From sequence record PQ471515.1: a stretch of DNA of 64,000 nt. One strand, 5' to 3'. Every line of letters starts with the position of its first letter. Within the stretch, counting starts at the first letter, position 1. The position numbers and the translations under genes are program-made. The DNA comes from Escherichia phage Turkey3. This document shows, piece by piece, positions 38,505-38,665 of the stretch. The notes beneath the pieces are model-generated. The model was not told the origin of the DNA, made no database searches, and saw only the letters and a list, made by a program, of their open reading frames with translations.

Positions 38505-38529
38505 AGACGTTTCATTTTCACAGGCCGCT

Positions 38530-38538
38530 GGGGGGGGG
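38530..38538. repeat. G9 homopolymer tract in intergenic region
   Basis: GCCGCTGGGGGGGGGTCAAAAAAA. Confidence 0.8.
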
Positions 38539-38665
38539 TCAAAAAAATTTTCGCTGAAAAACATGTTAAGGTATATGTTTAATATAAAGTTTTAAAATGT
38601 GTTCACAGAGTACAGTTCATGTTTCCTGAAACAAAAAATACCCCGCCGCGAACGTTCTCCTTATA

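Follow-up and report, generated by a model that had tools for sequence, protein, structure and literature searches.

Bacterial promoters contain well-known homopolymeric contingency loci, including the poly-G tract between the -35 and -10 elements of Neisseria meningitidis porA and the poly-C tracts of opc and of Bordetella fim. The contribution of hypermutable homopolymers to heritable heterogeneity within phage populations is only beginning to be recognised. Repeats of at least 6 bases serve as contingency loci in T2/T4 and other phages (Gomez, Barrick & Waters 2025, preprint, PMC12633550), and the same preprint cites Sorensen et al. (2021) for poly-G tracts in the receptor-binding genes of Fletchervirus. 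It also lists a few intergenic repeats. The known phage homopolymer contingency loci and poly-G tracts are almost all within open reading frames (ORFs), whereas the G9 tract analysed here is intergenic and lies beside a conserved leader. On the basis of comparisons among related genomes, we suggest with moderate confidence that this tract is a hot spot of replication slippage that marks the 5' edge of a conserved leader cassette, a position where changes in length are tolerated.

The window, which is the whole 64,000-nucleotide stretch of DNA analysed, comes from an Asteriusvirus-type jumbo coliphage of the 121Q/PBECO4/phAPEC6 group. A 2.5-kb query around the tract matched 35 phage records, all of them Escherichia or Salmonella jumbo phages of that group, with fEgEco12 as the nearest relative (98%). 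Alignment with fEgEco12, which has a direct terminal repeat of 20,993 bp (PMC13070987), places the window near the left genome end. Over a 7.3-kb alignment the two sequences are 98.1% identical with 6 gap openings, one of which is the tract itself, G8 in fEgEco12. We also noted 26 bp near 35653 that are present in the window and absent in fEgEco12, and a 10-bp tandem repeat, TAAAGGGTGC, near 37933 at the 3' end of the gene at 37319-37945, of which the window has one copy fewer than fEgEco12. The window is AT-rich (GC 0.30-0.42; G 0.191 and C 0.155 of all bases), and its + strand holds almost all genes. The immediate surroundings of the tract are as follows.

38289-38504, + strand: upstream small ORF of 71 amino acids with no family hit, ending in the TAG stop at 38502-38504
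38505-38701, + strand: non-coding gap of 197 bp, from the upstream small ORF to the first PHROG-15629 paralog
38530-38538: G9 homopolymer (C9 on the - strand), the hypervariable tract, with 5 to 10 G in relatives
38702-39079, + strand: first 'family B' gene, 125 amino acids, PHROG 15629, with paralogs continuing to ~40672

The sequence GCCGCTGGGGGGGGGTCAAAAAAA was found in the window and puts G9 exactly at 38530-38538, starting 25 bp past the TAG stop and 163 bp upstream of ATG 38702. The sequence-only reading had called it the only long G-run in an AT-rich window, and our scan of all homopolymers bore this out: it alone among the G and C runs of the 64 kb exceeds 6 bases, the runners-up being one G6 and one C6. 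Only ~0.02 G or C runs of at least 9 are expected per 64 kb from base composition, so chance composition does not account for G9. The same reading had placed the tract in an intergenic region upstream of a family B gene, which is correct, and had ended that region at 38665, which is not, as the gap reaches 38701. TTG 38666 is a mere start of a mechanical ORF extension and the next conserved start is ATG 38702, which is the start in most annotated relatives and opens a tandem array of at least five PHROG-15629 paralogs. At this start codon, Ec-M-J, WPEC3 and slurp01 have a 12-bp insertion (ACAATTGAAATG or ACGATTGAAATG, at 38696-38702) that shifts or duplicates the first PHROG-15629 start. The flanking proteins gave no Pfam match above the curated cut-off, no PADLOC match and no informative PDB relative.

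With ORFs called generously, only four non-coding gaps of 60 bp or more, this one included, interrupt the ~36 kb of packed + strand genes between 22.5 and 58.8 kb. The element in this gap has a single copy in the window and is found at one place in almost every relative, with WPEC3 listing a second matching place. Several coding interpretations of the gap were rejected. Searches against the window for a coding remnant or paralog fragment (tblastx and blastn) gave chance matches only. A + strand ORF from ATG 38562 is annotated as 29-46 amino acids in some relatives, but has 10 codons here and is not conserved, its reading frame depending on a variable A-run. The only ORF that contains the tract is antisense (38256-38564), with C9 encoding Pro-Pro-Pro near the N-terminus in the layout of a classic frameshift switch. 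It is open for 45-105 codons, stops at 45 or 51 in most genomes and is unconserved even with the tract set in frame. No tRNA or tmRNA was found in the window, and no terminator-like site was present on either strand of 38300-38900, and an intrinsic terminator was rejected.

A separate feature of the window is the palindromic hexamer AGTACT, which occurs 264 times compared with ~21 expected, and the octamer CAGTACTG, which occurs 62 times compared with 0.6 expected. The hexamer is dense at 1-22.2 kb and at 39128-64000 and absent from 22.3-27.9 kb and from 30001-39127, leaving whole gene blocks without it; the gap lies ~0.5 kb before one such boundary. It falls in each of the three reading frames (59/43/64), and 98 of its 264 sites lie in non-coding DNA, which makes up 18.5% of the sequence and is thus enriched for it; the selection therefore acts at the level of DNA or RNA, not of protein. 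Most copies lie outside the -35 region of the early promoters (AAAAAGTACTTGCA), although some overlap it. A literature search on the octamer returned nothing relevant.

Tract length among relatives

We took the region from 29 GenBank records and aligned it; 27 of them have the gap, with high similarity. A long G tract is found wherever the element occurs, in these 27 phage records and in three metagenome contigs, so the tract is not an assembly artefact of this one sequence. Lengths were counted in 25 reliable genomes, after setting aside the UNVERIFIED records CMSTMSU (G4) and TH47, both with many other indels. The tract was G8 in eight genomes, G5, G6 and G9 in four each (the window being among the last), G7 in two and G10 in one. 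In the remaining two of the 25 it was interrupted (GGAG...), as GGAGGGGG and GGAGGGGGGG. The metagenome contigs had G6, G6 and G7, and a scan of IMG/VR gave no match besides phage 121Q itself. Of the other homopolymers of the gap, an A7 two bases downstream of the G-run was invariant in all 25 reliable genomes, and an A6 run at 38633-38638 was mildly variable (A6 in 21, A7 in two and A8 in two).

Closely related phages often carried different tracts. SP27 has 8 G and ELP-22, at a distance of 2 substitutions per kb, has 5; the close pair WPEC3 and WPEC5 have 10 and 8, and SD-2, SD-6 and SD-15, from one study, have 9, 8 and 9, with 0-1 other indels within the same kilobase for most such pairs. 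Among pairs with a flank divergence of at most 1.1%, 64% differed in tract length. A first impression that length tracks lineage was dropped, as a permutation test on all pairs found no signal (Spearman -0.05 between length difference and flank divergence, p = 0.69). Since length is unrelated to phylogeny and most close pairs differ, tract length is, by the alignments, saturated. The comparison of isolates, a check put forward in the sequence-only reading itself, shows that G units have been gained and lost much faster than the flanks accumulate substitutions. The earlier suggestion that the tract is slippage-prone is therefore supported, given G5 to G10 and two interrupted tracts among 25 genomes beside a constant A7, and the hypermutable repeat length typical of contingency loci is seen here as measured between isolates. 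Separately, the second-longest G run in the window, a G6 at 62376-62381 (within CCCCTGCGGGGGG), is G7 in fEgEco12; both window G runs of at least 6 bases thus differ from this relative (G9 to G8 and G6 to G7), which fits general slippage.

That very close genomes usually differ in length means that the tract is hypermutable or, less likely, miscalled. Under the second option the tract would be real and most length differences between records would be homopolymer miscalls from sequencing or assembly, which we regard as very improbable. Noise would also give the absence of phylogenetic signal, and the most aberrant versions do come from CMSTMSU and TH47. However, the lengths span a range of 5 units in otherwise clean assemblies, the nearby A7 is identical in 25 of 25 genomes, fEgEco12 was assembled from Illumina paired-end reads with read-back mapping, and lengths differ within the SD set of one study and between WPEC3 and WPEC5. 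The assembly artefact that the sequence-only reading had allowed for is thus largely unsupported. Miscalling could still contribute part of the variation between records, and any single record may be off by ±1 G.

The leader cassette and its G/C boxes

The alignments mark out the following further parts of the gap.

38523-38529, + strand: GC-rich lead-in GGCCGC[T/A], which with the G-run makes up the 5' GC box
38539-38630, + strand: conserved AT-rich cassette core of low diversity, kept in phage A4 with other upstream context
38641-38650, + strand: C-rich box CCCCGCCGCG, hypervariable in sequence and length and complementary to the G box
38651-38701, + strand: proximal leader, common to phage ph0011, which is without the cassette

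Outside the tract, the cassette is under purifying selection. Nucleotide diversity is 0.036 in the core and 0.017 at 38555-38579; the flanking genes have 0.09-0.10 at third codon positions and 0.05-0.10 at first and second positions. The highest diversity in the gap, 0.099, falls in the 25-bp bin of the C box, which occurs as CCCCGCCGCG and in at least five other variants, purely G/C throughout. The proximal leader includes a small hairpin, CTCC...GGAG at 38657-38671, seen in predicted folds.

The limits of the cassette can be read from three recombinant or shortened relatives. Phage A4 has DNA unrelated to the window upstream of the G-run; its homology begins inside the run (38533) and extends to the start codon of a different PHROG-15629 paralog. 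In ph0011, ~38517 to ~38650, comprising both GC boxes and the core, is swapped for unrelated AT-rich DNA, with homology to the window back near 38633-38651 and the proximal leader retained. In UE-S1 the gap before the same gene is only 45 bp. Together, these structures define a unit that runs from the G box (GGCCGC[A/T]Gn) to the C box, travels with the downstream family and is dispensable, and the A4 start inside the G-run and the ph0011 replacement make the tract the edge of this cassette.

In the reading that we favour, the poly(G.C) tract would bound a single-copy non-coding cassette (~38523-38650) ahead of the PHROG-15629 array and would persist because its position, as a cassette boundary or as a GC box, tolerates length change. 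In such a length-tolerant position, the polymorphism would at most modulate the downstream genes, rather than turning them on or off. A counter-point is that, in a genome of 33% GC, every lineage has kept two boxes made up of nothing but G and C, which points to a tract that is more than tolerated.

One function for the boxes would be a clamp formed in read-through RNA or in single-stranded DNA: pairing between the G box (38523-38539) and the C box (38640-38650) would close off the conserved AT-rich core of 100 nt. Tract length would then tune the length of the helix, and the exact sequence would be free provided that the 5' box remained rich in G and the 3' box rich in C. The two boxes are the only G/C-only islands in the gap, are mutually complementary, vary in sequence while remaining 100% G/C, and coincide exactly with the ends of the cassette that ph0011 has exchanged and A4 has kept. 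The predicted duplex (-13 to -24 kcal/mol) dominates the ensemble in 24 of 27 genomes and is part of the centroid structure, although G-rich and C-rich stretches are always predicted to pair. Of the 40 pairs predicted, RNAalifold showed compensatory changes in none. For the PBECO4 version z is -2.2, but the energy of the window version is ordinary (z of +0.5 and +0.6 for the gap and -0.9 for the cassette alone, both strands). The early 5' untranslated regions (UTRs) of the phage do use G5/C-rich hairpins; the gap itself had no Rfam match better than E = 3.8 and resembles neither a structured RNA nor a known RNA family. The evidence for a clamp is circumstantial, and we consider this explanation quite improbable.

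Two other identities for the element were discarded. A repeated, MITE-like mobile element does not fit a sequence that is single-copy in the window and whose GC boxes are only imperfectly complementary, and a Chi-like reading of GCTGGGGG fails as its T is replaced by A in most lineages.

Promoter-like hexamers around the tract

The tract lies outside conserved ORFs and between two promoter-like hexamers on the + strand, and a further promoter-like arrangement spans it on the - strand.

38517-38522, + strand: -35-like hexamer TTCACA, which is TTGACA or TTTACA in other lineages (three alleles at position 3)
38543-38548, + strand: weak -10-like AAAAAT, inside an invariant A7T4 tract (38541-38551)
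38514-38542, - strand: promoter-like TTGACC, 17 bases, TGtGAAAAT, with the C-run in a spacer that is 16-18 only for G8-G10

The - strand arrangement was rejected, as its essential final T is lost in six relatives and it is not conserved. On the + strand, the G-run could be the variable spacer of a sigma-70-type promoter (TT[G/C/T]ACA, 7 bases, G-run, 4 bases, AAAAAT). Slippage into and out of a spacer of 16-18 bp would then turn the PHROG-15629 array on in part of the progeny, as a form of bet-hedging. This would give substance to the phase-variable switch of downstream expression proposed in the sequence-only reading, and there is precedent for phage contingency loci and for poly-G tracts within phage genes (PMC12633550). 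We nevertheless judge it unlikely.

The two hexamers are found in all 26 non-recombinant genomes, with 9-10 of 12 matches. No stronger sigma-70 match lies within this gap, itself among the few non-coding ones, and in the window no site in it scores at least 10 of 12. The -35-like hexamer is the consensus TTGACA in about half of the genomes, but its key G is C or T in many, and A4 lacks the hexamer entirely yet retains the rest of the cassette. The -10-like hexamer is held in the invariant A7 and keeps the critical A at position 2 and T at position 6, but matches at only 4 of 6 positions and has no TG extension. By comparison, the clear promoters of the phage combine near-consensus -35 and -10 hexamers with a spacer of 16-18 bp, a combination not found at the tract. 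G5, G6 and G7 would give spacers of 16, 17 and 18, placing isolates on both sides of the range, but the modal G8 gives 19 bp, so that ~60% of isolates would be 'off', and the spacer in the window is 20. The leader downstream of the candidate promoter is conserved. The same gene is found without the element in UE-S1 and ph0011 and could be reached by read-through from upstream (for example, from 36466). With hexamers that are weak, polymorphic or lost, the tract probably does not switch downstream expression as had been proposed.

What clear promoters look like in this phage can be seen elsewhere in the window. A profile built from eight early cassettes matched 29 early promoter cassettes of ~90 bp at 1.7-21.5 kb (for example, 18739-18831 and 21442-21535, with the -35 region motif AAAAAGTACTTGCA), a region that is probably the counterpart of the ~21-kb direct terminal repeat of relatives. 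Each follows the order A-rich stretch, AGTACTTGCA, 17 bases, TATAAT, GTTTTACAT, the 5'-UTR hairpin GGGGGAAAtGGTTCTCCC, Shine-Dalgarno and ATG. None of the 29 matches falls in the gap, and we rejected the idea that the gap derives from such a cassette. Extended -10 sites of the form TGTGnTATAAT have approximate -10 positions at 24715, 32212, 36466, 47162 and 51042, and several fall within coding sequence of dense paralog arrays; the array downstream of the gap could be transcribed by read-through from the site at ~36466. A clean terminator hairpin precedes the site at 50991-51050, and ACAGAGTACAG is common to the 5' UTR of that site and the gap (38605-38615). The promoter type of the related phages CBB and GAP32 (TGAAAC, 17 bases including TGn, TATAAT; PMC5259590) had no match in the gap or the window, and the relaxed class AAAC-N16-18-TATAAT was not enriched (14 sites compared with 13.4 expected). 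The literature that we searched held no transcriptome or reporter data for Asteriusvirus.

Comparison with known contingency loci

The broader proposition, that this is a non-coding contingency locus of a virulent jumbo phage in which slippage alters promoter spacing or the length of a G:C clamp, is in our view distinctly unlikely. If it is true, sibling virions would differ in expression of PHROG 15629, an accessory paralog array, amounting to bet-hedging at the level of transcription. An effect of length on expression would extend phage bet-hedging to transcriptional control and provide a handle on the PHROG-15629 genes. If there is no such effect, the tract is a fast-evolving marker that separates Asteriusvirus isolates, and still a trouble spot for assembly and variant calling. 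In either case, it offers a clean natural example in non-coding DNA, with six length alleles in otherwise near-identical genomes.

Within the phage itself, the nearest likeness is to the early cassettes (AAAAAGTACTTGCA, 17 bases, TATAAT, GGGGGAAAtGGTTCTCCC). In these cassettes as in the gap, a gene start is preceded by a G-run and then a C-rich partner, and the GTTCTCC...GGAG near the start codon occurs in the gap too. Unlike the early cassettes, however, the gap has no TATAAT, and its GC boxes are 100 nt apart rather than 4. Like the phage contingency loci described so far, G9 is a homopolymer in a phage genome with slippage-driven length change, and in being poly-G of 7-11 units it resembles the tracts of Fletchervirus cited above. 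Those characterised phage loci act by frameshifting ORFs, whereas G9 is intergenic and its only containing ORF is unconserved.

The bacterial promoter contingency loci are similar in another respect. G9, like them, is a long homopolymer of G/C that sits in non-coding DNA a short distance upstream of a gene; -35-like and -10-like hexamers flank it, and its natural alleles span the optimal spacer range. It differs from them in that its -10-like hexamer is poor and its -35-like hexamer polymorphic or dispensable, in that the genes downstream are probably also readable from upstream promoters, and in that its carrier is a virulent phage rather than a host-adapted bacterium.
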